Both the position numbers and the translations under genes were made by a program. 64,000 nucleotides of DNA, from the NCBI GenBank assembly GCA_964355175.1, contig CAYHBZ010000001.1, positions 304,523 to 368,522 on the forward strand. Direction: 5' to 3'. This DNA comes from an uncultured Gammaproteobacteria bacterium (GTDB lineage: Bacteria; Patescibacteriota; Patescibacteriia; Magasanikbacterales; GWA2-37-8). Positions 28,780 to 46,700 of the stretch are shown in pieces. A model generated the notes under the pieces. It saw nothing but the letters and a program-made list of their open reading frames with translations. It made no database searches and was not told where the DNA came from. Numbering within the stretch: the first letter of the stretch is position 1; the number at the start of each line of letters is the position of its first letter.

Positions 28780-28861
28780 AAAATATGTAAATTGTGCTAT
28801 AATTGTACCAGAAAAATAAAAATAGTCAACCCATCTGCAATTATCAACTTAGCTATTGATT

Positions 28862-30445
28862 ATGAAAAAAATACTTTTTTGGCTGTTATTGGTACTAAAT
28901 TTAGTCTATCCGCTGACCATTATATCCAATACCCTAGACGGTGATTTCGGTTGGCATCTGCGTTTTGGACAGGATATCCACACGCAGAGCTCTTTTCCCT
29001 ACCTCGATACCTACACCTATACAAAATATGGCGAACCTTGGACCAATCACGAGTGGGGCGGCGACTGGATTATTTACCAGGTTTATTCTCATCTAGGATA
29101 CTTCTGGATCAATATCATCGTGGCACTGGCCGGCGCTCTCGCTTTTTGGATTATCGGCAAAGCATTTATTAAAAAACCTGGAGTTTCTTTTTTGTTTTTT
29201 GCTCTGGCCTGCCAGATGGCCGTGTACCATATTTTCGCGCCACGTCTGGCGATGTTTTCGCAATTATTTGCCGCTTTGATTATTTTAATAATTGAAAAAT
29301 ATTCCTCCCGTCCGCGCGCGCTATACCTGATACCGTTTATTATCTGGCTGTGGTCCGTTTTGCACGGTAGCTGGATTTTGGGCTTTATTATTATGAATAT
29401 TTATTTGGGTTGTGCCGTGCTTCCATATATTGTGGGCCAAAAATACCAAAAATATTTTAATGAAGAAAAAAAGCCGCTTACTTTTATTTATCAGCTAATA
29501 GGGATTCAATTGCTGGCGGCAGTGCTAATTATAATCAATCCCTACGGCATAAAAATTTGGCAAGAAATCTTTCAGTATTTTGGACAAAATTACTACAAAG
29601 CCCACATTAGCGAATGGACACCGAGCTATGCTTATCCGGTGTTTCCAAAAATTTTGATTTTGCAGACCATTACCTTAGTATTGGTAATATACGGCTTTAT
29701 CAAACGCAAAGTAAAATTTACTTACCTGACTTTTTTCCTGGCCTTTTTTTACGCGGCCATGATGTACAAACGCCAAGCGATTTTTACCGCCCTGCTTTCC
29801 GCCCCAATATTATATTATACCGCCACTTTTATGCGGGAACAGATGACCAATTTAAAATTTTATAACTTTTTTATAAAACAAAAAGAAAAATTCTATTTTG
29901 TCGGAATAATTATCACGATACTTTTGATAATATTCTATGCCCGCCAAATGCACTATACCGATGATCCTTGGAATGACAAAATTCTTTCCTATAATAACGC
30001 TCCGCCCTACGAAGCGACCATATTTTTACAAAACTATACCGCGGGAAAATCAATAAAATTATTCAATGAATTCAGTTGGGGTGGATTTTTAAATTGGATG
30101 TTGCCAAATGCTCTGGTATATCTGGACGGCCGCGGCAGTGCCACCTGGATGCACGACAAAAATACCAGCATGCTACAACACTATATCGAACTCAAAGAAG
30201 AAGATAATGCCGTAAAAATAATTGAAGATACCGGGGCGGACTATATCATGTTACGCTATCCCAAATTTGTCATTAGCGGCATTCCCAGCTTCGCCGACCG
30301 ACATTTATTTGGTGATAATTTCAAAGAATATTTCGTGAATCATGAAGAAAAACTGAGGGAGAAAATTGACAATAGCGGTCACTGGAAAAAAATATATTCA
30401 GACAATCGCGCTAACATCTGGCAAAAAATTAATCCCGCGCCATAA
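28862..30445 (+). CDS. Polytopic integral membrane protein, possibly a GT-C-type glycosyltransferase
   Basis: More than 10 hydrophobic segments are followed by a soluble C-terminal domain. The start is placed at the ATG at 28862 (MKKILF). The functional call is only a guess based on architecture. Confidence 0.6.
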   Translation: MKKILFWLLLVLNLVYPLTIISNTLDGDFGWHLRFGQDIHTQSSFPYLDTYTYTKYGEPWTNHEWGGDWIIYQVYSHLGYFWINIIVALAGALAFWIIGKAFIKKPGVSFLFFALACQMAVYHIFAPRLAMFSQLFAALIILIIEKYSSRPRALYLIPFIIWLWSVLHGSWILGFIIMNIYLGCAVLPYIVGQKYQKYFNEEKKPLTFIYQLIGIQLLAAVLIIINPYGIKIWQEIFQYFGQNYYKAHISEWTPSYAYPVFPKILILQTITLVLVIYGFIKRKVKFTYLTFFLAFFYAAMMYKRQAIFTALLSAPILYYTATFMREQMTNLKFYNFFIKQKEKFYFVGIIITILLIIFYARQMHYTDDPWNDKILSYNNAPPYEATIFLQNYTAGKSIKLFNEFSWGGFLNWMLPNALVYLDGRGSATWMHDKNTSMLQHYIELKEEDNAVKIIEDTGADYIMLRYPKFVISGIPSFADRHLFGDNFKEYFVNHEEKLREKIDNSGHWKKIYSDNRANIWQKINPAP

Positions 30446-31157
30446 CCAGTCCATACACTTTTTGCGCTCCGGCGGATTTTAATACACGCGCACACTCCTG
30501 CATCGTGGCCCCGCTCGTGAAAACATCATCCACCAAAATAATATTTTTAGAGAGCGCGTCACGACCTTGCCAAACAAAAGCGCCATTTAGATTGGACAGG
30601 CGCTCAGCTCGATTTAATTTGGCTTGCTGTTTGGTAAATTTTATTCTCTGTAAATTGAGATCATCCAACTGAATACCCGGATGATCTTTTTTTAATACTT
30701 GAAAAATATTTTGCGCGATTAATTGCGCCTGATTGAATCCGCGCTCACGCCGACGCCGGCTATGTAGCGGCACGGGCACAAGTGTGGCATCACAGCTAGG
30801 CAGATTACCGGCTTGCCAAATAGTATTCAAAAATTCTGTCGTGATTTGAAGCCAAAGATTATTGATATCCGTAACTAGATTATACTTAAATTTTTTTATC
30901 AATCCACTCACCGCTCTATTATTTTGATAATTAAAAAAGGCGGCCACAGCTTCTAGACTGCTGGCCGCCTGACAATTGAGACAATTTTTGCCGTTTAAAT
31001 TTTTCAGATGACAAACTGGACAATAAAATTCTCCGCCGTTAAAACTTTGTATTATACAACTATCACACCACCACACACCCTCTTGATCGCAGCCCAAACA
31101 AAATATCGGAAACAAACAATCCTTTATAAATTGCACTAGCTCCCCTCCCCTAAACAT
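30429..31157 (-). CDS. comFC: ComF-family competence protein (ComFC, phosphoribosyltransferase domain)
   Basis: N-terminal Cys clusters are present (CLGCDQEG..C, CPVCH...CLNC). RGFNQAQLIA and ILVDDVFTSGATMQECARVLKSAGA form the PRTase motif. The start lies 4 nt after the upstream stop. Confidence 0.8.
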   Translation of the reverse strand: MFRGGELVQFIKDCLFPIFCLGCDQEGVWWCDSCIIQSFNGGEFYCPVCHLKNLNGKNCLNCQAASSLEAVAAFFNYQNNRAVSGLIKKFKYNLVTDINNLWLQITTEFLNTIWQAGNLPSCDATLVPVPLHSRRRRERGFNQAQLIAQNIFQVLKKDHPGIQLDDLNLQRIKFTKQQAKLNRAERLSNLNGAFVWQGRDALSKNIILVDDVFTSGATMQECARVLKSAGAQKVYGLVMARD

Positions 31158-31160
31158 ATT

Positions 31161-31757
31161 TTATTTTACCATTGTAAAATTATCTACAAACCAAGTGTCG
31201 CCACTTTTTACCAAGCTCACTTTGGCCTGAGCGTCTTTTTGAGTAATCACTCCGCCTTTTTCTTCAGTAATTTTTACCTGCAAATCTACCGTCGCGCTGA
31301 CATCAGTCCAAGCGGATATTTTGGCGCTATAGGCCTCCACACTCACGGCATAAAAATTTGGACTATTAGCGGGAATATTAGCCGGAATTTTGGCACTTAA
31401 TTGTTTCCAGTAGCTGTCGGTGGCCAAACTTTCCACATCCATCATATTCTGATAGCGGCTTTCCGAAGAATATGAATTCAATCTTTCCACGAAAATTTTA
31501 GCAAAATTTTGAGCGGCCTTTTGCTGAGTTTCCAAAGTGCTGGTTTTTGGCACATTTACATTCTGTAGATTGGTGACTGGCAAAGTGGTGCCGGCAGGAT
31601 TACTTTCAGAGTCGCCAGGCAATACTGTATTACCAGCATTATCTACTGCCGGAGCATTTTTATTTTTGGAGCGCACATACAAAAATATACTGACACCCAA
31701 AATAAATAATACGATTAAACTAACTACGATAAAAATACGGGCGCGTAATGACATCAT
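31161..31757 (-). CDS. Bitopic membrane protein with a C-terminal alpha+beta domain, possibly VirB8-like (NTF2-like)
   Basis: A single N-terminal TM segment (IFIVVSLIVLFILGVSIFLYV) is followed by a low-complexity linker and a globular domain of about 120 aa. The gene lies immediately downstream of VirB4. The VirB8 assignment rests only on architecture and context. Confidence 0.5.
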   Translation of the reverse strand: MMSLRARIFIVVSLIVLFILGVSIFLYVRSKNKNAPAVDNAGNTVLPGDSESNPAGTTLPVTNLQNVNVPKTSTLETQQKAAQNFAKIFVERLNSYSSESRYQNMMDVESLATDSYWKQLSAKIPANIPANSPNFYAVSVEAYSAKISAWTDVSATVDLQVKITEEKGGVITQKDAQAKVSLVKSGDTWFVDNFTMVK

Positions 31758-31766
31758 ACAAAATTA

Positions 31767-33635
31767 TTATTTAGTTTGATTTTCAAATTCTTGTTTGGCG
31801 CGTTCGATCTCAAGCAACTGCTGCGGGTTGGTGGTCACCAGCTGATCTTCGGTATACGAAGCCACGATCTTGATAGCGGCATGTTTGAGACCGGCAAAAA
31901 ATATTCCTTCACCCGGAGCACTCTCCAACAATAAATATTTTTCACTATCCGTAAGCATGAAAACTTTTTGAATGTTGTCCACGGCGGCCGGAGATTGGCG
32001 GAGCAACAATTGCAAAGCCGAATTGGTCACAATCGCCTGTCCGTATTGGGAATGCAAGAAATCATTTACATCCTGCGTAATAGTCGTGACACCCAAATAA
32101 TATTTACGACAGCGTTTCACCAAAGCAAAAATAAATCTGGCGGAATCTTCGTGTTGCATCAGCCACCAGGCTTCATCAATTACGAGCACGCGCTTGCGAC
32201 GCTCGGAGCGCACCGTGTTCCAAATATAATTGATAATCGCGTAAATAGCGAGCGGACGCAATTCATCTTCCAAATCACGCACACTATACACCACCAACTG
32301 ATTTTTCATTTCCACATTGGTTGGCGAATTGAATAGTCCACTAAAAGTACCTTCGGTATATTTTTTCAATTTTAATACCAATTCGTTCGAGCCTTCCATA
32401 CCTTCGAGCACTTCCTGCAAATCTTGCATGATTGGCGCTTCGACAGTATTGAGATCCACACCGGATACGATATCTTTTTTGGCGTAAGTTTCGATGAGCG
32501 CTCTATCGATTACCGAATCCTGCTCAGTAGTAATACCACCAAGCATAATACGGAGTAATCCTTTCACAGTAATAACCGCGCTACGAATAATATCGTCGAC
32601 AGACAAATCCTGCTCCATTGGGCGAGGCAGATCAAATGGATTTACTTTACTCTCACTGCTCAAAGAAATATTAATATAAGTACCACCGACCGCGTCAGAG
32701 AGATGTTTATATTCCATTTCCGGATCAATCACAATCACTTCCAGGCCCATCATGAGAGAGCGCAAAATTTCCAATTTAATGGCATAGCTTTTACCGGCAC
32801 CGGAAGTAGCAAATACTACCATATTGGCATTCTGCATCGAAAAACGATCAAACAAAATCAAACTATTGTTGTGACGATTGATTCCGTACAAGATACCATT
32901 ATCGGAAGTAAGCTCGGCAGAAATAAATGGAAAAGACGCGGCAATCGGCGATGAATTCATGTTGTAGGAAATCATCAATTCATCATTGCACAGCGGCAAA
33001 GTAGAATTAAAACCTTGCTCAGCTTGATACAATACTTTGCGACTCATGATCAATTTACTGCCAAAAATACTTTCGATATCTTCGGATAACTGATCCAATT
33101 TTTCTTTATTTTTGGTATAAATAGTGACATAAAAAGCAAACTGAAAAAAGTGCTCTGTCCCCTGGGTTAGATTGTCGCGCAAGCCTTCAATATCACGCAA
33201 AGCGGTCTCACGAATTGGATCACGCGGCGCGCCCTTTTCGGCATCGGCGCTAATCTGCGCTTCGAGCGCACCTACTTTATTTTTTAATTGTTTCAAAATA
33301 ATTTCGGCTTTAATCGGATAAAAGAACATTGAAATATCCATATTCACCGACAAACCAATCACGGGAGAGCTCCAACCCACGGAAATATAACGCGGATAAT
33401 TCATGATGAAAAGCGTACGACAAAAAGTGGTGCCAAGCTGGATAAAATTGGACTCAATATTAAAAGCCGCCGGCGCGATAATATCACGCAACGACACCAC
33501 GCCCTCACGATAGACCTGCTCTTCTTGCAGAGTAATGAGTTCGGCAGCGGTAGCTTTTTCTAACTTGCTTTTATCTTTACTACCCAAACTCGCTTTATCG
33601 TTTTGTTTGGCAATGAATTGTGGTTTAAAGGCCAT
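31767..33635 (-). CDS. virB4: VirB4/TraC/PrgJ-family T4SS ATPase, C-terminal 622-aa part
   Basis: DIIAPAAFNIESNFIQLG..FCRTLFIMNYPRYISVGW is the VirB4 middle domain. VVFATSGAGKSYAIKLE is Walker A and RVLVIDEAWWLM is Walker B. TQDVNDF is also present. Confidence 0.85.
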   Translation of the reverse strand: MAFKPQFIAKQNDKASLGSKDKSKLEKATAAELITLQEEQVYREGVVSLRDIIAPAAFNIESNFIQLGTTFCRTLFIMNYPRYISVGWSSPVIGLSVNMDISMFFYPIKAEIILKQLKNKVGALEAQISADAEKGAPRDPIRETALRDIEGLRDNLTQGTEHFFQFAFYVTIYTKNKEKLDQLSEDIESIFGSKLIMSRKVLYQAEQGFNSTLPLCNDELMISYNMNSSPIAASFPFISAELTSDNGILYGINRHNNSLILFDRFSMQNANMVVFATSGAGKSYAIKLEILRSLMMGLEVIVIDPEMEYKHLSDAVGGTYINISLSSESKVNPFDLPRPMEQDLSVDDIIRSAVITVKGLLRIMLGGITTEQDSVIDRALIETYAKKDIVSGVDLNTVEAPIMQDLQEVLEGMEGSNELVLKLKKYTEGTFSGLFNSPTNVEMKNQLVVYSVRDLEDELRPLAIYAIINYIWNTVRSERRKRVLVIDEAWWLMQHEDSARFIFALVKRCRKYYLGVTTITQDVNDFLHSQYGQAIVTNSALQLLLRQSPAAVDNIQKVFMLTDSEKYLLLESAPGEGIFFAGLKHAAIKIVASYTEDQLVTTNPQQLLEIERAKQEFENQTK

Positions 33636-33638
33636 ATT

Positions 33639-34325
33639 TTATTCTTGTTCAATTTGCATCTTATCCATTGGCGCCATACGCTCGGTGAGAGCGATATCGG
33701 GATTATAAGTAGAGTACAATACTTCTACCAGAGACTGAGTGTCGAGGCGCACCACTTCCAGACCAATTCCGCGCAAACCAGACTCTACTTGGCGCACACG
33801 CTGATCTAAATCATATTTGCGTTTGGTGAATCTTTCCGCTTTTAGTTTTACCGTCACGGCCGGATGAAAAACTTCGCTCAAACGCGCCCAAAAACTTTTT
33901 TGTTTATTGGACAAAGGATCATAAGGCACCACTACATAAAAATTTTTGCTCATAATCTCCCCCATCTCGACAAGCTCCGACACAAAAGATCGATAGTCGG
34001 CAATCTGCGCGCGCAACAATTCATTGGTCTGTTCGCGCTCGCGTTTGAGCAAATCTTCCAGGTACGGCTTGATATATAATTCACGCGACTGAATTACCAC
34101 CTGCAAAGGGTGGTCCAAACCGTTGAGAAAACTCACATAAGCGGATACGATAGCGTTTTGTTCGTCTTCATTTTTCAAAGCAAAATTAATGCTCGATACT
34201 AACATTATAGCACGCATCGTGCCATCTTTCATCACCACGGTATCCTGTCTGATTTCTGAAACAGACAAAAATCTTTGGGCGGATGGTATGCTGGTTTTTT
34301 TTGCTGCCGCTTTTTTATTCTTCAT
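33639..34325 (-). CDS. VirB4 N-terminal segment encoded as a separate 228-aa ORF
   Basis: DTVVMKDGTMRAIMLVSSINFALKNEDEQNAIVSAYVSFLNGLDHPLQVVIQS follows, as I recall it, the N-terminal pattern of Gram-positive VirB4 proteins (Tn916 Orf16/PrgJ type). It is separated from the 622-aa ORF by TAA-AAT-ATG in the same frame. Confidence 0.55.
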   Translation of the reverse strand: MKNKKAAAKKTSIPSAQRFLSVSEIRQDTVVMKDGTMRAIMLVSSINFALKNEDEQNAIVSAYVSFLNGLDHPLQVVIQSRELYIKPYLEDLLKREREQTNELLRAQIADYRSFVSELVEMGEIMSKNFYVVVPYDPLSNKQKSFWARLSEVFHPAVTVKLKAERFTKRKYDLDQRVRQVESGLRGIGLEVVRLDTQSLVEVLYSTYNPDIALTERMAPMDKMQIEQE

Positions 34326-34331
34326 ATAAAA

Positions 34332-34784
34332 TTAATCTTCCGGTTTATAATAACCGCCGGTATTTACCGCCAAGGCCAAATCGCGCAGACGGTTATAGGA
34401 TAAATTTGGCACCTCCGCGATCTTTTCTACTAGCACCACCGTTTCCATTTTGCGCAATTGTTCCAATTCTTCTTTGGTGTCCATTTTATACCAGATGCGT
34501 CGACTCGGTCGGCGCAGTGTCTGAAACAAATTCAATAAAAAATAATGAAAAGACTGTCCGTTGATTTTTACAAAAGCCAAGATCAGAGAAAAGCTACCTA
34601 GAGTGGCTAGAGAGAAAATGAACAAAGCCATGTCCGCCAATTTAAAAGTAATAAATAAAATCAGTCCGGCAATTAGCAAGATCAAAAACTGACGCGTAGT
34701 CACCGGTCCAAAAATTTTATCCTCAACGTCAATAAATTGTGGCACTACAAACTGTTCCATATTAAATAGCCAACTCTTTTTCAA
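34332..34784 (-). CDS. PrgI-family (VirB3-like) small membrane protein
   Basis: VPQFIDVEDKIFGPVTTRQFLILLIAGLILFITF followed by a second TM segment is the PrgI-family pattern. The gene lies directly upstream of VirB4, as in Gram-positive T4SS loci. The likely start is the internal MEQF. Confidence 0.6.
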   Translation of the reverse strand: MKKSWLFNMEQFVVPQFIDVEDKIFGPVTTRQFLILLIAGLILFITFKLADMALFIFSLATLGSFSLILAFVKINGQSFHYFLLNLFQTLRRPSRRIWYKMDTKEELEQLRKMETVVLVEKIAEVPNLSYNRLRDLALAVNTGGYYKPED

Positions 34785-35901
34785 AATTAATTAAAGCTTC
34801 AATTTCCGCTAAAGAAATTTTATCTCTTTCTCCCAGCACTCCGGATAGTGGTCGTCTCTGCTCTATCGCCTCATCCACCGCGCTAATATAAGATTGATAC
34901 AGAGGACTATTATGCCAAGCGTCCCAGGATTTCATAAACAGCAGATAGGATTCTTCTTTCAAGTTCAAAAATTTTTGTTTCAGGCGCTCAGCGGCATCGA
35001 CCGGCTTGGAAGACAGGCGGCGAAAATCTACCAGATTGAAAAATTGAATCTCGTCGAGAGGCCCCATGGCCATCGGTTTGCTATGCACATCGTGCATCAT
35101 CGCTCTAGGAGTCACCGAAGCCGCGCGCATTGGCGCAATATTTTGGGCCGGTTTCTGCTCTGTTTTTTTTGCGATCAAATCTTCGATCGGCGCCGAAGCT
35201 ACGCCGGCACTGAAAATAATTTTATCTACAATATTTTCTTTCACTTCCTTTTTTTCTACTTTCGGCAAGTAAGTGGTTGGTTTGGATTTTTCGGTCAATT
35301 CTCTAGCCTGAGTTTCAGTCAATCCCAATCCACCGTCTTTTATAGAACGGCCACAAGCATCCAGAGTATCAGGTTCACTGCGAATATCTTTTAGACGGAG
35401 CTGAACGACACTACGCAAGCGACTATCAATTTGAGGTGAAACTTTAAATGATAAACTGGAAATGATTTTGGAAACTTGATCGGTGCGATTGGATGCTACG
35501 GTAGTTTTGGCATGTTCACTGTCTGGGACTTCTTCATGGAGCAATGATTTCAAATCTTCATTTTTCAAAACTGGCTTTCCTGGCACTTTTTTATCGTCAT
35601 CCTGAGCGACTTTATTGTCATCCCGAACGGATGTGAGGGATCTTTCCGGCCTGTTAGATTCCTCGCTTACACTCGGAATGACAGTATTCACCTTTGGAAC
35701 GACAGGTGCTAAAACAGGCTTCACAGGTGCGGACACAGGCACAGCCGGTGTTGGCGCCACTGGTGTCGGTGCAACTGTTGGTACAGCCACTGTCGGTGTA
35801 GACGCGCCGGCCTGGCGTTTTTTTATTTCAGTCAAAGAAACCCTCTCGGTCGTGCCGTCGGATTTTTTTACCGTAATCATGATTTGATTATTGTCTGGCA
35901 T
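34762..35901 (-). CDS. Hypothetical protein (379 aa) with a Pro/Val/Ala-rich segment and an embedded palindromic element
   Basis: The ORF is part of the operon and its ends overlap or abut the neighbouring genes. The repeat-derived peptide VIPSVSEESNRPERSLTSVRDDNKVAQDDD is embedded in it. I recognise no domain. Confidence 0.6.
   Translation of the reverse strand: MPDNNQIMITVKKSDGTTERVSLTEIKKRQAGASTPTVAVPTVAPTPVAPTPAVPVSAPVKPVLAPVVPKVNTVIPSVSEESNRPERSLTSVRDDNKVAQDDDKKVPGKPVLKNEDLKSLLHEEVPDSEHAKTTVASNRTDQVSKIISSLSFKVSPQIDSRLRSVVQLRLKDIRSEPDTLDACGRSIKDGGLGLTETQARELTEKSKPTTYLPKVEKKEVKENIVDKIIFSAGVASAPIEDLIAKKTEQKPAQNIAPMRAASVTPRAMMHDVHSKPMAMGPLDEIQFFNLVDFRRLSSKPVDAAERLKQKFLNLKEESYLLFMKSWDAWHNSPLYQSYISAVDEAIEQRRPLSGVLGERDKISLAEIEALINFEKELAI
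35596..35682 (-). repeat. Palindromic element copy C (35617-35682) plus an adjacent half-copy (35596-35610), in frame within the 379-aa ORF
   Basis: The full copy is gtcatcccgaacggatgtgagggatctttccggcctgttagattcctcgcttacactcggaatgac. The half-copy gtcatcctgagcgac matches the left arm of copy A at 13 of 15 positions. Confidence 0.6.
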
Positions 35902-35903
35902 AT

Positions 35904-36914
35904 TTATAAGCTATGTTGATGTAAACCAATCACCAGGCGTAATAATTCTCTGAGCCAATTCTGCACGGCTTGAGTATTTGGTTCATTTTGATAAAAATCG
36001 GCAATAAATTTTTCTTGAGCAAAAGTTTTAATATCCGCTTCATAAACCAAAGCAAATACTTGGTGAACAGCTTCCTGAACTTTCACGCCAGAAACAGCTT
36101 CGGAAGTGGTCGGTATAAATTCTCCATTATAATCCAAAGTACGAATCAAACCATCAAATTCTTTATCCAATTCTTGGGCATTCAAGCCATTATAAGCCAT
36201 CAACAAACGATCGCGCACTGGCACACCTACCACCACCGATTGATAAAAATAATTTTGTAATAAAAATTTATGATCAGATATTGATAAATCCCTAAAATAT
36301 GCCCAGGCCATTTGTATTATTAGACTACTGACCAAAACTTCCAGCCAATAAAACTGTGCACCTTCGTAATCGTCTTCCTTGGTAGCCGCAGGCAAAGAAT
36401 TTAATAATTTTCCGACATAACTAGTTGAAGCCGCGCCGGTAATTATTTGCCTCAAGGTATAGACAAATAAAATATCATCATAATAAGGCAACTTGCCGGC
36501 CAAAATCAAACTAATTTCTTCATCGTTATACGGCTTGATTTCTTTCAGATCAGGCGACAAATTATCAGTAGCGGCTGATACCAAAAAAATCTGTGAAGAT
36601 AAGCTATTTAACAACTCTTGATCGCTGGGGTTGGCTATAAAACTTTTGATAAGATCGACGCTGATTAAACTTATTAAAACCTTATCAATTTTTACAAGCA
36701 GTCCATTACTGGTATTTTGCAATTGTTTGGATAGATTTTCGGCCACACCATAGATACCCTTGGAATTTGGAGTAAACAGCTCTAGACGATCCTCGGCGGC
36801 GACCAATTCATTCAAAGCCAAGACAACCTCATTTTGTGGCTGAGAATAAAAGGTATATAATTTTTGCGCTCCAAGCTTTAAGGCCATATTTAAGAAAATA
36901 TTTTTTCGTTCCAA
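35904..36914 (-). CDS. Hypothetical soluble protein (336 aa) in the T4SS-like operon
   Basis: The ORF has no TM segment and a helical-looking composition. It overlaps the upstream gene by 25 nt. Confidence 0.6.
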   Translation of the reverse strand: MERKNIFLNMALKLGAQKLYTFYSQPQNEVVLALNELVAAEDRLELFTPNSKGIYGVAENLSKQLQNTSNGLLVKIDKVLISLISVDLIKSFIANPSDQELLNSLSSQIFLVSAATDNLSPDLKEIKPYNDEEISLILAGKLPYYDDILFVYTLRQIITGAASTSYVGKLLNSLPAATKEDDYEGAQFYWLEVLVSSLIIQMAWAYFRDLSISDHKFLLQNYFYQSVVVGVPVRDRLLMAYNGLNAQELDKEFDGLIRTLDYNGEFIPTTSEAVSGVKVQEAVHQVFALVYEADIKTFAQEKFIADFYQNEPNTQAVQNWLRELLRLVIGLHQHSL

Positions 36915-37963
36915 TGAAATTGATTATCGGATTCGCTGAAATATACCAACTCATCAGTTATTAATTTTTGCTCCTGCAAAATCGAGCTGAACTGGACTAA
37001 TAAATTTAATTGATCTTCATCAATCAAACTAACTTTACTTTTAACTACCGACAATAATTTTTTAATAAAATCAGGGGCTTGAGTTTTTAGCCAATCGGCG
37101 ACTGCGGTGGCACTGCCCAACCATTGGGTGAGATCCGGTAATGCTTGCAAAAAATTCAAATAGGTTGCGGATTTATCAATTTCCGCTTGCGGTTCCACCT
37201 TTTCTTCGTGCAAACATTTATCTTCTGTGATATTTTTCCAAATTTTTCCACTTACCAAAGAGTCGTAAATTACCAATATATATTCCAAAGCGGCTTTCAA
37301 CGGCGCATCTAAGCTGGTAACCTCGATAAATTGTCTAGCAAATTCTTCTACTTTTGTTTCTTCATTATCGGTTTTGAATTCATCCAGCATTTTCACCCAT
37401 TGAGAGATAGATTTATTATTTTTATCATCGAGATCGCCGACAATATTTTTATTTTCAGAGATATCGTCGGCAAATTTGCCGGCATCTTCTTTGTAAATAT
37501 TTATAAAACAATATTGGGCGAAGTAATTTCTAATACTTTCGATAACTTGTATCTTGCCAGACAACACAGCCAACAACAAAAATCTGGAGCCAAGTAAAAA
37601 ATCTTGACGCAAACTTTTCTGTTGAGCAAAATTCAAAAAACCAAGCCAGGCATAATACTTTTGATAAAACCAATTTTGTTCATCATTTAAAAAATCAAAA
37701 AATATTTTTTTATTAGACCAATCTTCCAAAGACCCGAGAATTTCACTATCTGCACCATCGTAGTAATCAGATTGATAATGGTACAAAGAAAACAGCAAAT
37801 TCAGCTGCACCTGTTCACTGGCCAAGACTGATTGATCTACATCAGCCCAATCTCTGGCGGTATAATCCGAGCTATTGTTTTCTAATTTACGCAACAAAAC
37901 CTGGCGCTCCTGCTCTGAGCGCTCTGGAAAAAAATTGGAAATTAATTCTTCGTAAGAAAACAT
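36890..37963 (-). CDS. Hypothetical soluble protein (357 aa) in the T4SS-like operon
   Basis: The ORF has no TM segment and is acidic. It is the gene immediately downstream of the VirB6-like gene. Confidence 0.6.
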   Translation of the reverse strand: MFSYEELISNFFPERSEQERQVLLRKLENNSSDYTARDWADVDQSVLASEQVQLNLLFSLYHYQSDYYDGADSEILGSLEDWSNKKIFFDFLNDEQNWFYQKYYAWLGFLNFAQQKSLRQDFLLGSRFLLLAVLSGKIQVIESIRNYFAQYCFINIYKEDAGKFADDISENKNIVGDLDDKNNKSISQWVKMLDEFKTDNEETKVEEFARQFIEVTSLDAPLKAALEYILVIYDSLVSGKIWKNITEDKCLHEEKVEPQAEIDKSATYLNFLQALPDLTQWLGSATAVADWLKTQAPDFIKKLLSVVKSKVSLIDEDQLNLLVQFSSILQEQKLITDELVYFSESDNQFHWNEKIFS

Positions 37964-37992
37964 ACTACCTGTTTATTTTATTGATCAAAATT

Positions 37993-40900
37993 TTATGATG
38001 TTGGATCTTTCTTATTTTTTTCAGCAGTTCCTTTTTCTACCGGTTTAAATGCCGCCATCTGCCTCTTTGGTGCCTTGCCGTCATCAGTAAAAGCCCCTTC
38101 ATTGTATAAAGAAATCAACTGACTGATATTTGTAATATGCTCCTGCTTACCTTTTGCCATCACAGTAATATTCATTTTACCGGTCTGATAAGCTTCCTGA
38201 GCGTCTACCTGAGATTTCTTGGCCAAAGTCATCAACACATCTTGAGGGTTGGTAAACAACTGATCCTTTACCAATTCATTAAACCAATCATTGGTAGTTT
38301 GCTGGTGTAAGGCGTCTTCTTTATTCTTTATATGTCCAAGACGTTTACCTGATTTTACCTCAGAGTATCTCCCGGCCAGCCCAATACCGTCATCGGAAAA
38401 TTTCTGTGCCCAATTATGACGCCCTGAATCAGACCCATTGGCTTTTTTACCATTAATCAAGAGACCATCCTTTTCTGTAAAATAATCTTCAACGTTTTCC
38501 GTGGAAGCCAAACCGGCCATATGGTTTAGATAACGTGGAGTAGTTTTTTGATGGTTTAAATGACTGGTAATATCACCTCTGGATATACGATACGCTTTGC
38601 CTCTGGTTCTAGTAGCATAGCCTGTACCCTCATCTAAGTTAATATAGGAATGCGATTGTTTACCGGCACGATTGCCAACATCCAATTTGTTGACCTCACC
38701 CAACACACCATCTTGGGCGATTCCAGCACCCACCAATACATGCCTTTGTTTACCTCTGCTAGATTTGATATTATCGGCATGGCCACCATTTTCAGTATGA
38801 GAACCACCGGCCATCTCATCGCGTAAATTGGTAACAAATTGAATTTGAGATTGATTATCATCCTGCGTCTTGATATATTGAGCCATTTTAGACTTATCGG
38901 TAATTGTTTTTAATGGAGCACTGTCAGCACCAAACTTATCACCGAATGTTTTTAATTCACTACCGGTAAAATCTTGATTTTCCAATTTATCATAAAATTG
39001 AGCCACACTCATACCCATTTCTTGCACAGCATAATCCATCACTTTGGCTACTTGTTTATGCATACCGGCAAATTCTAAATCACCACCAGTACTCAAAACC
39101 GCAAACAAATCATTAATTTTTTCAACGTTAAACTCCTTGCCTTGCCAACCAAGCCCACCATCTGCAACATTTTTTTGCATCTCCGCTTTTAAATCAGGTG
39201 CCATCGCGCGCCAAATACCATCATCAAGCCAACTTTTAGAAACACCATGATCAAGCATAGCGGCCATAATATTTTTATCGGCAGAAGTTGGCCCAGTACC
39301 TTTACCCTCTTTCGCATCTTTTCTCTTTTGAATCATCGCCAAAAGATTGGTACCAAAGTTACTGGTATAGGTGCTATAATCCATGTCCGTAAATCTTTTA
39401 CGATAATATTCTCTACCTTCAGATAAAGCCTCGTTTGGCACAGTGATACCTCGAGGTTTGTAAACTTCTTCTTGCTCTACTTCACTCAATAAATAATTAT
39501 GATCTTTGGAATAGGCATTTTTTTCCTCAGTTTCCTTGGCATGAGCCGCTGAATTCTCCCAAGAAATACTAGAGGTTCTTTTGGCTCTAGCTTTCTGTAC
39601 AGCCTCTTTTCTAGCGTCCTTAAGTGTCTGATCATTGTTATCTATAGATGAAATTTCTTCCTGTAGGGTTTCAATACTATCTTCTTTAGCTTTTATCGTA
39701 CTCCCATTTTTTACATCAAAATCGTTAAATGCTTTTTTGGCAGCTTCTAATTCTTCCGGATTGGAAGGATCCGCCGCTCCCAAAGCTGCTTGTAGCCTAT
39801 TTTTTTCCGAAGACAATTTACCAAGCTCTTCCTGTTCCGCTTTTAGCTGAGTGCGTTTGAGGGCCGAACCTTCAGAATGCATATTGTTGGCTGATTCCAA
39901 AATTTCCTGAGCCTCAAGCTCAGCTTTTATTGCCTCTTCGTCAAAGCCATGTTTTGCTTTAGTTAAATTATTGCTGAGTTGCGTTTTGGCAGTATCAGCA
40001 CCAAGTTCGGCTCCAGCTTGCTTTCTGAGAAGGCCCTTACCGCCATGTTTTATTATTTTACCATTTTCATCTTTCTTATCTTCGGTGTCAGAAAAAGCAA
40101 CGGCGGCTTTCTTTTCCAATTCTTCAATTTCAGCATGTTCTGTGCCTTCTTCAGCTGCTATAGCTGCTTGCTTGGCGAGTAATGCTCCGGCATGTTCCAT
40201 GAAATGCAACTTAGCACCACCTTCAGCTAAATGAGCGGCTTTCTCAGACAATTCCGCTTTAAACTTCGCCTCCACCTTGGCGGCGACCACTTGTTTTCCT
40301 TTGCCACTTTTACGATATTCTTCCAATGTTCCCGACATCAGTTCCTTGGTTCGTTCTTTGTTTCTATCAGCTCTTTCATTATGACCAACAACTTGTTCAG
40401 CTATACTACCTTTTTCATATTGAAATTTACCATCTTTAAAACGAGAACTCTCCAAAGTGGCACGGCGACCATACTCTTGGAATTCAGAAGTTTTAGCGGC
40501 AGAGCGTTCTTTTTCCGCGGCCAACATACCTTGGGCAACACGATCAAAGCCATCTGGCATATCACGCAAAAATGCACCTTTAGGAATGGCCGTTATCCTT
40601 TTATCTATCAATTCTTCTTGTAGTTTGGATTGATCTTCTGTTTTCTTTAAAGTTTTACGGCTGCCAATTAATTTGGCGCGAGCTTCATAGCGATTTTTTT
40701 GAAACCAACTCCTTGAATCCTTATCTTCATATTCATATTCACCTTCGATATCTTTACCATTTTCATCTTTCTTATTAACAAATTTCATTCTGGCGTTTCC
40801 TTTATCATCTAATTTTACATTACCGTGCTCATCTTTCTCCTCCTCCATTTTTAATCTAGGACCTTCCGAACGATAAATTTTCCAGCTTTCCAACTGGCGT

Positions 40901-42189
40901 TTGGCAAAATTTTGAACTCTTTCTACCGTATCTCCCAAAGGTGTCGCATTCCAAACCGCACTCTTGATACCACTGCCAGCGGCACTCACCGCTTTACTAC
41001 CCATATCTTTGGTCTTATTAAATGCCCACATACCGGCCGCTACACCAGAGCCAACCGTAGCCACTTTCTTGGCAAAATCCGTGGCCTTGCTCATCGCACT
41101 GCCACCTACTGTACCAAGCGACTGCGCGGTCTTGGCACCAACAAGTAAAATACCAATTGCGATAGCGAAGTTGGCAATTTTATCAAAACTCATCACCGCG
41201 CTAATACCCACGGTCGCGGCCGCGCCGTTAACTTTCGCACCCGGCATATTTTCTTGCGGAGCGGAATTATTCTCTTTGCTACTAATTTCAGAATTTATCT
41301 GACCACTGCCCACTACCGCAAATGACAGCCATAGGAAAAATACTACGACCGGACCCACGATGACATGATTACCAAACTCACTCCACCATTGCGAAGCATA
41401 TTTTTCGGTTTGCGGAATCACGCTGAGCACAAAAGCAAATGGCGACAACACAATCAAAATCCACAGCACCAACATGCGAGCCAAAAGCATAAATACAAAT
41501 ACGGCCATAATGCCCAAAGTGAGAGCGGCAAAACCAAGTGCGCCCACCGCGGCACCAAAAATTTCTGAATTACTGGTGAGACCTTGCGGACCAGTTTCGG
41601 GATTGAGAGAATAAATTTTATCCAAACTAAAAGCGTTGATCAAATTACCACCGGCCGTGGCGGCGATACCGTTTACAAAAGTAATCATTACCACCTGAGA
41701 AATATCAATAATCACGCCACAAATTATTCGACTGAAATTTACCAAAATAGCGGCAAAGAAAAACTTCACCAACATTTTTTTCCATTCGTATTGTTCTAGA
41801 CCCAAGATAGTACCAAAAGCCACCAGCAACAAAACCACCACAAAAAACATATTGGTAATATCACGCACCATCACCCAGCCTACCTGCACAGCGGTGGAAT
41901 TCAGATAGCCATTATAGCCGGCAATCTCAATAATAAACGACAAACAAAAAATCGCCAGACGAATCATCAAAGCCGCAGCGGCCAAGAGCATGGTCGTGAT
42001 TGCTTTGACAAAAGTATTAGGCTCAAAACCACCGGCGGCGGCCGGCTCGGCATACACCACATTTGTACCCATCACCGCATACACACCCAGACCCAAAACC
42101 AGCAAAAATACAAAAAGGGCCACTTGGTTTTTGTGGGCAGATAAAAAGTTATAGAGTTTAATTGTTCTCGCTTTAATACTTGAGAACAT
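37993..42189 (-). CDS. VirB6/TrbL-like polytopic membrane protein with a charged C-terminal extension of about 1000 aa
   Basis: The N-terminal 350 aa or so contain at least 6 TM segments (…MVRDITNMFFVVVLLLVAFGTILG…ILVNFSRIICGVIIDISQVVMITF…), as in VirB6/TrbL/PrgH-type channel proteins. The remainder is K/E/A-rich and looks like coiled coil. It is the first gene of the operon. Confidence 0.6.
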   Translation of the reverse strand: MFSSIKARTIKLYNFLSAHKNQVALFVFLLVLGLGVYAVMGTNVVYAEPAAAGGFEPNTFVKAITTMLLAAAALMIRLAIFCLSFIIEIAGYNGYLNSTAVQVGWVMVRDITNMFFVVVLLLVAFGTILGLEQYEWKKMLVKFFFAAILVNFSRIICGVIIDISQVVMITFVNGIAATAGGNLINAFSLDKIYSLNPETGPQGLTSNSEIFGAAVGALGFAALTLGIMAVFVFMLLARMLVLWILIVLSPFAFVLSVIPQTEKYASQWWSEFGNHVIVGPVVVFFLWLSFAVVGSGQINSEISSKENNSAPQENMPGAKVNGAAATVGISAVMSFDKIANFAIAIGILLVGAKTAQSLGTVGGSAMSKATDFAKKVATVGSGVAAGMWAFNKTKDMGSKAVSAAGSGIKSAVWNATPLGDTVERVQNFAKRQLESWKIYRSEGPRLKMEEEKDEHGNVKLDDKGNARMKFVNKKDENGKDIEGEYEYEDKDSRSWFQKNRYEARAKLIGSRKTLKKTEDQSKLQEELIDKRITAIPKGAFLRDMPDGFDRVAQGMLAAEKERSAAKTSEFQEYGRRATLESSRFKDGKFQYEKGSIAEQVVGHNERADRNKERTKELMSGTLEEYRKSGKGKQVVAAKVEAKFKAELSEKAAHLAEGGAKLHFMEHAGALLAKQAAIAAEEGTEHAEIEELEKKAAVAFSDTEDKKDENGKIIKHGGKGLLRKQAGAELGADTAKTQLSNNLTKAKHGFDEEAIKAELEAQEILESANNMHSEGSALKRTQLKAEQEELGKLSSEKNRLQAALGAADPSNPEELEAAKKAFNDFDVKNGSTIKAKEDSIETLQEEISSIDNNDQTLKDARKEAVQKARAKRTSSISWENSAAHAKETEEKNAYSKDHNYLLSEVEQEEVYKPRGITVPNEALSEGREYYRKRFTDMDYSTYTSNFGTNLLAMIQKRKDAKEGKGTGPTSADKNIMAAMLDHGVSKSWLDDGIWRAMAPDLKAEMQKNVADGGLGWQGKEFNVEKINDLFAVLSTGGDLEFAGMHKQVAKVMDYAVQEMGMSVAQFYDKLENQDFTGSELKTFGDKFGADSAPLKTITDKSKMAQYIKTQDDNQSQIQFVTNLRDEMAGGSHTENGGHADNIKSSRGKQRHVLVGAGIAQDGVLGEVNKLDVGNRAGKQSHSYINLDEGTGYATRTRGKAYRISRGDITSHLNHQKTTPRYLNHMAGLASTENVEDYFTEKDGLLINGKKANGSDSGRHNWAQKFSDDGIGLAGRYSEVKSGKRLGHIKNKEDALHQQTTNDWFNELVKDQLFTNPQDVLMTLAKKSQVDAQEAYQTGKMNITVMAKGKQEHITNISQLISLYNEGAFTDDGKAPKRQMAAFKPVEKGTAEKNKKDPTS

Positions 42190-42210
42190 GAAAATAAATT
42201 TACTGTCATT

Positions 42211-42239
42211 ATTATATCATAATTCAGCTAAGCGAACAA
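42211..42239 (-). promoter_or_regulatory. Putative extended -10 promoter for the T4SS-like operon
   Basis: The minus strand reads TTGTTC (42239-42234), a 17-nt spacer whose last bases give TGA, then TATAAT (42216-42211). Confidence 0.4.
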
Positions 42240-42264
42240 ACAAAACCCTCATCTCTCCAAACAC

Positions 42265-42273
42265 TTATCCACA
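42265..42273 (+). promoter_or_regulatory. Perfect TTATCCACA box in the divergent promoter region, 21 nt upstream of TTGACA (42295-42300)
   Basis: This is an exact 9-mer in the context CACTTATCCACA, the same extended context as the box at 17475. Confidence 0.3.
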
Positions 42274-42390
42274 CATTTATTTTTAATAAAAAAATTGACA
42301 GTGCTAGACCGATTTGTTAAGGTGAATTAAATGCTCTTTACACTGTGTGTTGAGCTTTTCGCTCACACCAACCACCCCCAAGAGGACGCC

Positions 42391-42714
42391 ATGAAGCTGC
42401 TCGTCAGTCTCACTTGCTTGGCGCTCTCCTGCGCCACCGAACCTCCCCCGACGATCTCGACGACGTCGAGTCTCATCACCACCGACCCGTGCCAGGGCAA
42501 ACAGTGGCTGGAAGAACATATCCTGGACTGCGGTCCAGGCAAATTCTACTGCTACCCCAAAGTGACTCAGCCGAAAAATGCCAACTGCCGGCTGATGTGC
42601 CAGACGCACTGGTACCCTATCAGCTGGGTCGAAGGCCAGGAGGGCGACAGCTACATCCGCATTCGCGACGACTTCACCGGAGATATCCTCCTGTGCCTCG
42701 TGCGAGCAAAATGA
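42391..42714 (+). CDS. Small Cys-containing secreted protein encoded in the high-GC island
   Basis: MKLLVSLTCLALSCA is signal-like. AGAGGA lies 6 nt upstream of the ATG. Codon usage is GC3-rich, unlike the rest of the window. I recognise no family. Confidence 0.5.
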   Translation: MKLLVSLTCLALSCATEPPPTISTTSSLITTDPCQGKQWLEEHILDCGPGKFYCYPKVTQPKNANCRLMCQTHWYPISWVEGQEGDSYIRIRDDFTGDILLCLVRAK

Positions 42715-42819
42715 GGTGACTCAACGGGGTTTCCGCCAAGGGGCTGACGCTAGCCGTCGGCTCCTGGCTCCCCAACTCATTTAGATAACGGCTTTAGGGC
42801 TGTTTTTTTATTTTTGGAG

Positions 42820-42828
42820 TTATCCACA
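42820..42828 (+). promoter_or_regulatory. Perfect TTATCCACA box between the two GC-island genes
   Basis: This is an exact 9-mer inside the AT-rich spacer of the island. Confidence 0.25.
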
Positions 42829-42905
42829 GAGATATTGTATTTTTATCAAATTGTGGCATACTAAAATAGTATGGGTAATAAATTACCCTCAATCTAGCCA
42901 AATGG

Positions 42906-42934
42906 TTGACAGAAACAACCGTTTGTGCTATAAT
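42906..42934 (+). promoter_or_regulatory. Consensus sigma-70 promoter for the second GC-island gene
   Basis: TTGACA (42906-42911), a 17-nt spacer, then TATAAT (42929-42934). Confidence 0.55.
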
Positions 42935-43018
42935 AAGCAATCGTTCTTTACAAGTGCTAATTTTGCCTATTTGGGCGAAATTGGCCAATATAACGAGAGA
43001 AGGAAATAAAAATGGGAA

Positions 43019-43072
43019 GAGATTGTGGTGGAATGTTTGTTTGCTAAGGCAAGCACACAGTCCACCACAATC
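43019..43072 (+). other. Perfect 13-bp hairpin in the 5' leader of the second island gene
   Basis: agattgtggtgga (43019-43031) pairs with tccaccacaatct (43060-43072). The left arm lies inside an 11-codon mini-ORF (ATG at 43009, MGRDCGGMFVC, stop 43042-43044) that is preceded by gaaggaaa. Confidence 0.5.
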
Positions 43073-43146
43073 TCGGACGCATGTTGCTCCAAGATAGTGT
43101 GGTCGGTTCTCACGAACCGCTAGCCTCTCTGTCTCAGGAGAACACC

Positions 43147-43755: not shown

Positions 43756-46700
43756 CTATGGATTTTCTATTTTATTTACTGGCACAACTACTCTAGACTT
43801 AAATAAAGTATTAGAGTGAGAATTTTCAGATGTATCAGTATATATAGAATAAAAACTACACTCTTGCATTTTACCATCATAGCAACTACTTGTACCATCT
43901 GTACCTGCAGTTTCACTATCCACACAAGTACCATTACACCATCCCCAATTATCCAACACCTGAACTTTTGGTTGATAAACACAGCAACCGCCCAGTTTGG
44001 CATCATCCCATTTTGTCTTTTGAACACCACTGAGGACATCACAATTTTCATGCCAGATAGGAGCGCCTTCTTGGCCAGTACAATTATAATAAACTGTGGC
44101 GGTATATGGATGGAGATCACAGCTTTGATTTAGAATATATCCAAAGGCAGGAGCTTTGGTCTCATCAGCGGTACACTGAGGCAACAACTTGCCGTTACAT
44201 TCACTATCCATAGTACAAGGCACACTAGAACCGTTACATACACCGGCTTTACACATACCGCCTATAAAGTATCCGCGCTGATTCCAAAAACTACCATCAC
44301 TGGTTTTTTTGATATCACTTGGATCACCGGTACCCGGGTCAATAATAATTCTTCGCACCGGCATATGATCTGAGTCGGCATTATAGAAGAATTTGAAACT
44401 TGCTTCGTATGGCTTGGTGTCGATGACCAGATGATCAGTAGCGGATGCGGGCAATTTATTGTTAATGTTGAAACCATCCTGGAATATTTCCTGACATTTG
44501 CCGCTGGTGTCACAATCACCGACCGGATGTACTTGAGGAACTGATTTAGAAGGATCGTGGGCATCGCCATTATAATTTGTAGCTATATTAGTCACATCCA
44601 AATCTTTGGTAGTCAAAACCAATTTATCACTGGTGGTTGGCGATCTATATAATTGAGTTTTGTTATCAGAGAATATACTGATATTGCCAAACGGAATCTT
44701 AGCATAAACCTGCACGAGCAAACTCAGCGACTCTTTGATCTTGTCTACCAAAGGCTTACCACTGGTTGGGGCTTTGGAACTCATATTCTTTGGCAAACAT
44801 ACTTTCACCTGATCTCCAACACAACTATTTTCGTAACAAGCGGCATCAGTAGCACAACCTAAAGTACTGCTAACTACCCCATTGAAACTACAGTTACCTG
44901 CACAGAAGAAACCATTCTTTTCACAATTACTACTGCCATTGGCAGCATTACAGTCCAAAGCCATCTTTGGCGTGGTTGTACTACTGGTACAAGAGTTGGC
45001 TGAAAGATTACAAACCGAAGTATCGCCAAAAGCATTCTTACACTTAGTATTATCACCGGTACCGTCGGAATTTTTACATTTAAATTGACAAGTATTGTTG
45101 TTACCATGATTAGCACAAACGATATTGTAATTACAATTACTGTCTTGAGTACAACTGGAATAACTGGCAAGACTCCAGCGATCATAAGTTAAATTATTTG
45201 AGGTAAAACCTTTGTATCCTACAGGAGAACCTTTAGGACACATAGCTGTACTAAGCGGCTCTTCAAAAATTCCATTCGTGCCAAAACAAGAACGTAATAA
45301 ATACAACGGACTATTAGGGCTTTTGGTTTTAGAGTCATTCATGAAAGCGAACGGTGAGCTGGTAGCTTCACGAGTAAAATTCACTTTATTTTTATAAACG
45401 GCATCTACATTGGAAACATCTATCGTTTTGAAATCGCTTTTGGTATATTTCCACAACCTATCCGCCCAAGGTGCAAATTTTGTATCCAAACTGTCGAACT
45501 GGACATAGGCCTGGCAACCAATCTGAGTGTTTTGGAAACTTGACATAATGTTTGAATACCAAGTACCGTCCGGATAAGCTTTTGGTTCATCCGGCACACA
45601 GTGGGTATAACACCAATCTGGGTCATAATTATCACAGCCCTTAATTCCGCTAGCGGCTTTATAATCACTATGGAAACCTACGCCACAGATAGTGTGTGGA
45701 GATTCTTCAAAACCGTCATCAAGCGCAAGGGCAAACACACAATCAGAATCTGAATTATACACGTTAGCAGATGTATTAAAACATCTATCAAAACCACCCA
45801 AATCCGATCTGTAAATATTCGCGGCCACACAATACTTTGTTCCTTCCGGTAGTGCCGCGGCCGACTGTGGATTACTGCCATTGATATCCACTGATCCCTC
45901 TATTGAACCAAGTGGCAACCAACTCATACATGGATATTGTGGATCGTCCTTTGTACCACCAATTACTCTAGATTTATCATACTCCAAACAAAAACCTTTC
46001 CAACCATACAAATTTTGAATTTTATTATCTTTTATCTGACAGGTACCTCCGGCTTTTTCACATTCTCCTGGTGGCAATTGAGCCGGATTTTTAGCATCAA
46101 AAGCAACACTACATGGCTGATCATCTTTTGAACCACCTAAACATACACCTTTATTATCTTCAGCATACACTGTCTTCAAGGAAGAATCATTTTTCTGAGA
46201 AAAATACTTGACTACGGACTTATTACCAAATGTTACTTTGGCATAATCACAATCACAAACCTGAGCCGCCGGATCTCCGGCATCAAATACAGCACCACCA
46301 TTTTCAAAGCATTTATTTAATTTGGTGGAATCCTTCAAATTATTCGCAAAAATATTTGGAAAAGGAGAGTCTTTTTCCGGATAAGCGCGACAAGCCTTAC
46401 CAATACTAGAAGCGGCCAAATCACTATTTTTGCCATCATTACCTTGCAAACACCATCCATTTGTACAAACACCGTCATTTTGTGCACCACAAGATACAGT
46501 AGTTGTAGCTGATTTACAACCAAATTTATTACTACCACCCGCGCACTTTGTGACATCATTTCCACAAGGAATAAGCCTAAGCAATCTCCAATCAGGATCG
46601 GGATCAGAAGCTTTGGCGATATTAAATTGCCACAATTCCTCTACCGGATAACTTCCCAAAATAGACAGACCTACTAACTCTCTTCCTTTCCAGGACACAT

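Follow-up and report, generated by a model that had tools for sequence, protein, structure and literature searches.

A chromosomal type IV secretion operon with comF at its 3' end in a Magasanikbacteria genome

The DNA studied here (contig CAYHBZ010000001.1, positions 304,523 to 368,522 of the forward strand) is 64,000 nucleotides long; this whole stretch is called the window, and coordinates are counted from its first letter. At positions 30429-42189 it carries nine co-directional open reading frames (ORFs) on the minus strand, which together resemble a minimal type IV secretion system (T4SS) operon closed by comF. Their boundaries are identical to those drawn in a first-pass annotation made from the letters alone. 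From the upstream to the downstream end the genes are:

g1, 37993..42189, minus strand: 1398 aa, extended VirB6/TrbL-like polytopic membrane protein
g2, 36890..37963, minus strand: 357 aa, cytoplasmic, no family match; first copy of a fast-evolving family
g3, 35904..36914, minus strand: 336 aa (longest ORF), distant paralogue of g2
g4, 34762..35901, minus strand: 379 aa, cytoplasmic, with a Pro-rich linker and a conserved C-terminal domain; no family match
g5, 34332..34784, minus strand: 150 aa (longest ORF), PrgI/VirB3-like, two transmembrane (TM) helices
g6, 33639..34325, minus strand: 228 aa, TrsD-like, equivalent to the VirB4 N-terminal domain
g7, 31767..33635, minus strand: 622 aa, VirB4 ATPase with linker and P-loop domain
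g8, 31161..31757, minus strand: 198 aa, bitopic VirB8-like protein with TM helix, disordered linker and NTF2-like domain
g9, 30429..31157, minus strand: 242 aa, ComF (ComFC/GntX family) with a Cys-rich zinc-finger region and a PRT-like domain

The genes are indeed packed as tightly as first described: on the identical public contig the called genes are spaced by 1-29 nt, and taken as longest ORFs some neighbours overlap slightly. On that contig g3 is called from its probable start at 36887, giving 327 aa, and g5 probably starts at 34760, giving 142 aa. Only 3 nt separate the g8 stop from the ATG of comF, so that comF does begin right behind the upstream stop. A plus-strand membrane-protein gene (28856-30445) converges on the operon and overlaps the 3' end of comF, and the operon therefore ends at comF. 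A promoter scan was uninformative on the operon structure, giving 32 sites compared with 32.4 in shuffled sequence.

Relatives were collected in a scan with one genome per species, in which 497 genomes contained a VirB4 relative; the conservation counts come from the best 80 of these 497. Their VirB4 proteins are 74-99% identical, and all 80 belong to Magasanikbacteria or Patescibacteria records. Protein g7 matches NF045971, the model of the CD1110-family VirB4, at 1.3e-106 (357.6 bits, cutoff 325, model positions 174-728) and Pfam P-loop_TraG at 7.7e-28, and its Walker A (GAGKS) and Walker B (DE) motifs are invariant across the VirB4 alignment. Judged by similarity, not by a phylogeny, it is a VirB4 of the Gram-positive (CD1110/TrsE) type close to other Patescibacteria VirB4s. 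The preceding g6 matches NF041427 TrsD/TraD (2.7e-8), aligns also to the N-terminal parts of VirB4 models, and shares 27% identity (E 3e-8) with the protein annotated as TrsD on the L. paracasei plasmid plca36. Homologues of g7 occur in more than 120 Patescibacteria/Magasanikbacteria clusters at 79-99% identity; all 120 homologues listed measure 590-643 aa, nearly all of them 620-643, and a TrsD-like ORF directly precedes virB4 in 79 loci. Because these lengths are so uniform, the TrsD-like ORF so constant, and the arrangement on Gram-positive plasmids the same, the split is native and not a frameshift: g6 and g7 together make one VirB4. The first-pass annotation had spoken of VirB4 in two pieces; the two ORFs are there, but they are conserved TrsD-like and VirB4 genes and not a broken one. 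Stop-codon read-through joining g6 to g7 was also considered and rejected: the two share a frame in the window, yet not in loci L004 or L005. The separate TrsD-like and PrgI/VirB3 genes both adjoin virB4. For g5, the PrgI/VirB3 assignment is borne out by Pfam PF12666 PrgI (7.2e-9, 36.5 bits, cutoff 27) and a predicted TM hairpin, and PrgI is found in 74 related loci with a median identity of 65%.

The two remaining membrane components were assigned with the help of structure predictions. Protein g1 starts with a signal or TM segment followed by about seven TM helices (about 7-8 TM segments) within residues 23-350, and the membrane domain continues into about 1050 hydrophilic, K/E/A-rich residues. 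A model of its N-terminal 450 residues, of only moderate quality (pLDDT 64, TM core 70-86), ranked TrwI chains at the top in Foldseek; two members of the g1 family match Pfam TrbL weakly, and a homologue found at E 2.8e-15 carries Pfam TrbL_3. The g1 profile returned only coiled-coil noise from the PDB sequences. No T4SS component showed a DNA-binding domain in Pfam, the sole hint being HTH_56 in g1 at E 0.018. Protein g8 has one N-terminal TM helix. Its AlphaFold model, built with 32 homologues (pLDDT 82, domain above 90), shows this helix joined by a disordered linker to three helices with a four-stranded sheet, and this bitopic protein with its NTF2-like domain is most similar to VirB8, DotI, TraM and PrgL. 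From these models we conclude that g1 is an extended VirB6 and g8 is VirB8-like; both assignments, first proposed from the letters alone, passed the structural comparison that could have overturned them. The T4SS cluster thus holds a VirB6-like polytopic channel protein, and the translocon set of extended VirB6, PrgI/VirB3, split VirB4 and VirB8-like protein is present.

The last gene, g9, matches the TIGR00201 ComF model at 5.2e-28 over profile positions 11-190 of 190, scoring 98 bits, below the curated cutoff of 234; its match to GntX (8e-25) also lies below the curated cutoff. Across 55 orthologues there is no variation in residues C20, C23 and C31 or in the DDxxTxGxT motif. The g9 profile reaches the ComF structure of H. 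pylori, 7p0h, at 1e-4 in the C-terminal region only, where the PRT motif lies, and the single g9 sequence found no match in the PDB. With its zinc-finger region, PRT-like domain, conserved PRT motif and full-length TIGR00201 match, g9 resembles ComFC/GntX (YhgH), so that the name comFC given to it at first holds. It differs from these proteins in its score below the curated cutoff and in its gene lying in a T4SS operon, not with comFA or standing alone.

The cytoplasmic proteins g2, g3 and g4 gave neither a predicted signal peptide nor a TM helix, and they found no match in Pfam, NCBIfam or the PDB sequences. Profiles built from 61 sequences for g4 and from 62 for g2/g3 likewise returned nothing from the PDB sequences and Pfam. 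The positions of these genes are nevertheless constant: the g2/g3 family sits between g1 and g4 in 68 loci, and g4 stands immediately upstream of prgI in 73. A pairwise BLAST of g2 against g3 was not significant, yet hhalign joined first to second copies with a probability of 99.7% (E 5.8e-26, 230 columns), which makes g2 and g3 distant paralogues at the level of their profiles. Two copies occur in only 13 loci, most relatives being single-copy. The earlier description as three soluble proteins without known function stands as to the cytoplasmic prediction and the missing matches; what it had not recognised is the kinship of two of them.

The block g4-prgI-trsD-virB4-g8-comF is collinear in nearly all of the best 80 loci. 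More importantly, comF follows right behind g8 on the same strand in 70 of the 72 loci with at least 1.5 kb of sequence downstream of virB4, at a median gap of 3 nt; of the other two loci, one has a 3.2 kb insertion and one an inversion. Median identities to the window proteins fall from VirB4 (80%) through TrsD (70%), PrgI (65%), g1 (45%), ComF (40%), g8 (36%) and g4 (34%) to about 15-30% for g2/g3. The locus with the most distant g8 homologue available still keeps VirB4 (71% identity, C-terminal half), g8 and ComF, so that the virB4-comF linkage is maintained in 70 of 72 species genomes and one more distant locus. Beyond comF the neighbours are variable housekeeping genes (Suf, ABC transporters, SMC, VanW, ClpP). 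From these data, comF is fixed at the operon 3' end in the class ABY1/Magasanikbacteria lineage.

At locus L083, whose VirB4 is 54% identical, the cluster holds a giant protein, a TrbL_3 VirB6, a 177-aa protein, PrgI, a TrsD-like protein, VirB4, a 116-aa protein and T4SS_pilin, and it adjoins yidC, dnaA and dnaN; neither g8 nor comF is there. Because both are absent from this locus, comF and a recognisable VirB8-like gene are best seen as a lineage-specific addition to a phylum-wide core. The called virB4 of L083 (8567-10405) also has an in-frame TGA six codons from its end, which may reflect an alternative code with UGA as a sense codon in that lineage or an over-extended gene call.

A further observation concerns the labels of the records. 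Many third-party (TPA) records of metagenome-assembled genomes with the Magasanikbacteria-type operon are titled 'uncultured Gammaproteobacteria bacterium' (L004, L006, L011-L013 and others). Candidatus Magasanikbacteria (phylum Patescibacteria) is the label on near-identical VirB4 proteins and loci, and the Gammaproteobacteria titles look like mislabelled source records. Magasanikbacteria are placed in class ABY1 (PMC12102498), and L014 is Magasanikbacteria GW2011_GWA2_37_8, a genome within the dataset of that study.

The RecQ helicase gene (26353-28203, minus strand) lies 2 kb past comF, after the convergent membrane-protein gene, a tRNA-Ser and a 139-aa ORF. RecQ is found downstream of comF in L003 and L079 as well, echoing the recombination genes published near ABY1 T4SS loci.

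The setting of the operon is that of an ordinary chromosome. It is flanked by a 16S rRNA gene, three tRNAs, HisRS, signal peptidase, TrmD, SMC, ClpP, RecQ, KsgA, Sua5 and the class-I release factor PrfB, and on its two sides housekeeping genes take up about 30 kb and 22 kb. Among the large ORFs of the window, Pfam gave no match for a coupling protein, relaxase, VirB1-type hydrolase, VirB9/10 or VirB11, and tblastn of the plca36 transfer proteins (MobQ, VirD4, lysozyme and others) against the window returned VirB4 only. Both searches agree with the absences listed in the first-pass annotation, and its judgement that classical conjugation is unlikely is strengthened by the housekeeping flanks and the fixed chromosomal synteny. 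Within the 64 kb, virB4 is thus chromosomal and has neither a relaxase nor a coupling protein nearby; the linkage of relaxase, type IV coupling protein (T4CP) and peptidoglycan hydrolase to mating-pair genes, as in conjugative MPF-FATA systems and integrated conjugative elements, was not found. One could still imagine a remnant or active integrated conjugative element with its relaxase, coupling protein and oriT outside the window, given that this VirB4 belongs to the family found in Gram-positive conjugative elements and that a few Patescibacteria do carry relaxases (PMC12102498). Such an element would hardly be embedded in housekeeping genes on both sides, nor keep 74-99% VirB4 identity and fixed chromosomal synteny across 80 species genomes. 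In 22 related neighbourhoods, no T4CP, relaxase, integrase, ComEC or DprA recurs beside the cluster, and relaxases lay near virB4 in only 15 surveyed cases (PMC12102498). We consider an integrated element extremely improbable and reject it on the flanks and the synteny; for practical purposes it is excluded.

The 16S rRNA gene itself (10186-11741, minus strand) is followed by protein genes, tRNA-Val and tRNA-Ile, with no 23S gene in the roughly 10 kb of the window downstream, and the rRNA genes appear unlinked.

The ancestry of the machinery can be followed by comparison with plasmids. The nearest plasmid VirB4s are those of Bacillota and Actinomycetota at 27-34% identity. With the pGO1/pSK41-type MPF-FATA system of L. 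paracasei plca36 (NC_011352) the operon shares the core order VirB3-like, TrsD, VirB4, a homologous TrsD, a VirB4 with 27% identity along 97% of its length, a protein of the TrbL/VirB6 family and a monoderm architecture without VirB7/9/10. What the plasmid carries beyond this, namely a MobQ relaxase, a VirD4-like coupling protein, a topoisomerase, a CagC-like pilin and a lysozyme in the place of VirB1, is absent from the window, and the plasmid lacks comF. Quinonero-Coronel et al. (2025) described a monophyletic Patescibacteria VirB4 clade related to MPF-FATA, in which TrsD, PrgI/VirB3, VirB6 and VirB2-like pilins are widespread, relaxases are almost missing, T4CPs are rarely near virB4 and recognisable VirB8 homologues are confined almost entirely to ABY1 (PMC12102498). 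The Patescibacteria T4SS derives from monoderm conjugation machinery of the MPF-FATA type, with the pGO1 and CD1110 branches. The operon fits this clade, including the SEML1_0006-0019 cluster of the Saccharibacteria epibiont Southlakia epibionticum: it is chromosomal, has VirB4 with separate TrsD, PrgI/VirB3 and VirB6, VirB2-like pilins in the genome, no relaxase or coupling protein nearby, and KsgA in its neighbourhood. With the ABY1 loci it shares the comF gene and the detectable VirB8-like protein; these loci commonly contain comF, and recG and radA co-localise with them, an arrangement described for class ABY1 only (PMC12102498). The Saccharibacteria cluster differs in that its operon includes a pilin array and peptidase/lysozyme genes but no comF, and no VirB8 structural homologue was found there (PMC12102498), unlike g8 here. 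In the window, by contrast, the pilin fusions lie 26 kb off, and the operon has the ABY1-specific g2, g3 and g4 and the 1398-aa extended VirB6.

Several surface-protein genes surround the operon:

Giant secreted protein, 43756..51705, minus strand: 2649 aa, N-terminal signal peptide/TM segment, no Pfam domain
lipA, 42391-42714, plus strand: small Cys-rich lipoprotein with lipobox, in a GC-rich block
lipB, 43147-43554, plus strand: small Cys-rich lipoprotein with lipobox, in a GC-rich block
Pilin fusion 1, 3-2717, minus strand: PF18895 T4SS_pilin (3.9e-7) with TIG and Big_7
Pilin fusion 2, 2710-4788, minus strand: PF18895 T4SS_pilin (2.7e-8) with Big_5

In 28 loci a homologue of the giant protein precedes g1 in the same orientation, so that the protein is probably a member of the T4SS cluster, whether adhesin or substrate. 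The gap of about 1.5 kb between its gene and g1 (42190-43755) contains two GC-rich blocks of about 57% and 63%, against about 40% for the genome. A structured RNA, considered for this region, was dismissed: Rfam gave no credible match, and two opposite-strand lipoproteins are encoded there. The lipA/lipB pair has a perfect 12/12 sigma-70-like promoter at 42906-42934 (from the scan whose total is no higher than in shuffled sequence) and terminators of its own. In most of 20 related loci the equivalent gap is GC-rich as well and holds an opposite-strand lipoprotein-like ORF, none of which has detectable homology to lipA or lipB; the predicted lipoprotein slot is thus conserved in position and hypervariable in sequence. 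The two tandem pilin proteins combine an N-terminal VirB2-like T4SS_pilin domain with Ig-like domains, and by their domain content they are fusions of pilin and adhesin, not small pilins. Both may be distal parts of the T4SS.

Two more observations belong to this neighbourhood. A bitopic 220-aa protein (51719-52381, minus strand) adjoins KsgA, and its homologue stands directly before g4 in L078 (6993-7772) and L080 (159-935), where the giant gene, g1 and g2 are missing; from this arrangement the cluster appears to be built from two separable modules. Further giant secreted proteins are encoded at 55996-62847 (minus strand, 2283 aa, PKD/CARDB/fn3) and 12920-17338 (minus strand, 1472 aa), an unusually high density of huge surface proteins for a small genome.

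The surface genes bring up the question of whether the T4SS exports effectors, or assembles a pilus or adhesin towards the host, with comF as an unrelated passenger. Two T4SS_pilin fusions and several giant secreted proteins in the window, one of them conserved upstream of g1, speak for this, as do the cytoplasmic proteins g2, g3 and g4, whose fast evolution (about 15-35% identity, compared with 80% for VirB4) would fit host-specific substrates. Protein export was also suggested for the Saccharibacteria system by Wang et al. (2023) (PMC10633639), and effector-translocating T4SSs without a T4CP exist in Ptl and the Brucella VirB system (PMC12102498). The difficulties are that no effector, signal or chaperone was identified, that the pilin genes lie 26 kb away, and that the retention of comF in the operon is left unexplained. 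Taken as a whole, with comF as a mere passenger, we find this distinctly unlikely, even though g2/g3/g4, the giant secreted proteins and the pilin fusions would fit a host-specific role in export or adhesion.

The opposite direction of transport was favoured in the first-pass annotation, which saw a possible ComB-like DNA-uptake machine. Importing T4SS-type machines do exist, namely ComB and the archaeal Ced system (PMC12102498). The operon resembles H. pylori ComB as a T4SS-derived set without relaxase, VirD4 and VirB11, and H. pylori transformation also needs ComF. ComB is found in a diderm, where ComB7/9/10 serve to move double-stranded DNA into the periplasm, and ComEC with ComFC then act at the inner membrane. 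The present operon differs: no ORF of the window matches VirB9 or VirB10, so that the outer-membrane core of ComB7/9/10 (VirB7/9/10) is missing, the envelope is monoderm, and comF lies inside the operon, which is not so in H. pylori. The locus is therefore not a member of the ComB family, and a ComB-like import role is possible by analogy. The minimal, chromosomal T4SS-like operon without coupling protein and relaxase thus stands as described; the ComB membership falls, and the comF linkage turned out to be lineage-specific. To Ced (CedA/A1/A2/CedB), which sets a precedent for import, the operon is similar in its VirB4/HerA-type ATPase, the missing relaxase and the single-membrane cell. It is different in that the CedB model matches only partially, in the P-loop region (58 bits against a cutoff of 700), that no CedA-like genes are present and that the ancestry lies in a different clade; neither a CedB equivalog nor the CedA membrane proteins were found.

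Import can be put more generally: the T4SS would take up DNA from the host cell or the medium and pass single-stranded DNA directly to ComF, as a monoderm functional analogue of ComB or Ced that feeds recombination and/or nucleotide salvage. The coupling of comF to the VirB8-like gene in nearly all species genomes counts in its favour, as do the window without coupling protein or relaxase, and RecQ past comF together with recG and radA near ABY1 T4SS loci (PMC12102498). Moreover, Patescibacteria are unable to make nucleotides (PMC12102498, PMC10633639). DNA import through a relaxase-less T4SS has been proposed as a hypothesis (PMC12102498), and a 2025 review, which calls the function unknown, speculates on uptake via the pilus conduit. 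We found no later functional study of a Patescibacteria T4SS in the literature. Damke and colleagues are said to have placed H. pylori ComFC, in 2022, at the ComEC inner-membrane step and not with ComB. This tells against a direct hand-over, as does the lack of a DNA-binding domain in the T4SS components. S. epibionticum, the one patescibacterium amenable to genetics, cannot grow as an epibiont without its T4SS cluster; its fitness genes do not include ComEC, ComF or DprA, and natural transformation is lost when comEC is deleted although the T4SS is intact (PMC10633639). Since the T4SS is essential there and ComF is not a fitness gene, the essential job of the T4SS in this organism does not need ComF. 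Furthermore, only one class shows the comF linkage although the T4SS occurs across the phylum, which argues against ComF being integral to T4SS function. We regard import with direct transfer to ComF as unlikely. One may speculate further that the ABY1 T4SS is a contact-dependent DNA importer in which the VirB8-like protein and ComF form a hand-over station, ComF replacing the coupling protein. This version is quite improbable; if true, it would be a monoderm bacterial counterpart of ComB and Ced that supplies host DNA and nucleotides.

The account that we prefer, and hold with moderate confidence as a whole, is that the locus encodes a vertically inherited, chromosomal, non-conjugative T4SS of Patescibacteria. 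The machine would assemble in the single membrane and form a VirB4-powered conduit at the contact with the host cell, possibly together with the VirB2-like pilin-fusion proteins at 3-4788. By analogy with S. epibionticum, this conduit would be needed for the epibiotic lifestyle. Conjugation would not be among its activities, because neither a relaxase nor a coupling protein is present. Within this account comF would be the ordinary ComFC of the genome, working with ComEC and DprA on incoming single-stranded DNA and transcribed together with the T4SS genes, a part of the explanation for which we see the chances as evenly balanced. Co-transcription would tie the expression of DNA uptake and handling to the making of the host-contact machine, and comF would be neither a structural nor an obligatory part of the T4SS channel.

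Several points weigh against this account. In 70 species, comF is tied to the VirB8-like gene more tightly than passive hitch-hiking would seem to explain, and the tie persists while the downstream context changes. Because L083 has neither gene and VirB8 homologues are found almost only in ABY1 (PMC12102498), the VirB8-like protein and comF may be a single added module with a T4SS-related role. In addition, the functional data all come from Saccharimonadia, whose T4SS operon has no comF (PMC10633639). The tight and persistent coupling of g8 and comF favours some functional tie.

In summary, the kind of system, the ABY1 comF arrangement and the import hypothesis were already published in 2025 (PMC12102498). 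To this we add the structural confirmation, by predicted models, of VirB6-like and VirB8-like components in a Magasanikbacteria locus, the count of the comF linkage across species genomes, and the recognition of g2 and g3 as paralogues. Upstream of the operon, the conserved giant secreted protein and the position-conserved, hypervariable lipoprotein slot are also added here. The cargo of the T4SS matters for understanding how a quarter of all bacterial diversity makes its living from host cells, and the conserved linkage of comF to the ABY1 operon is one of the few genomic hints at what its substrate may be.

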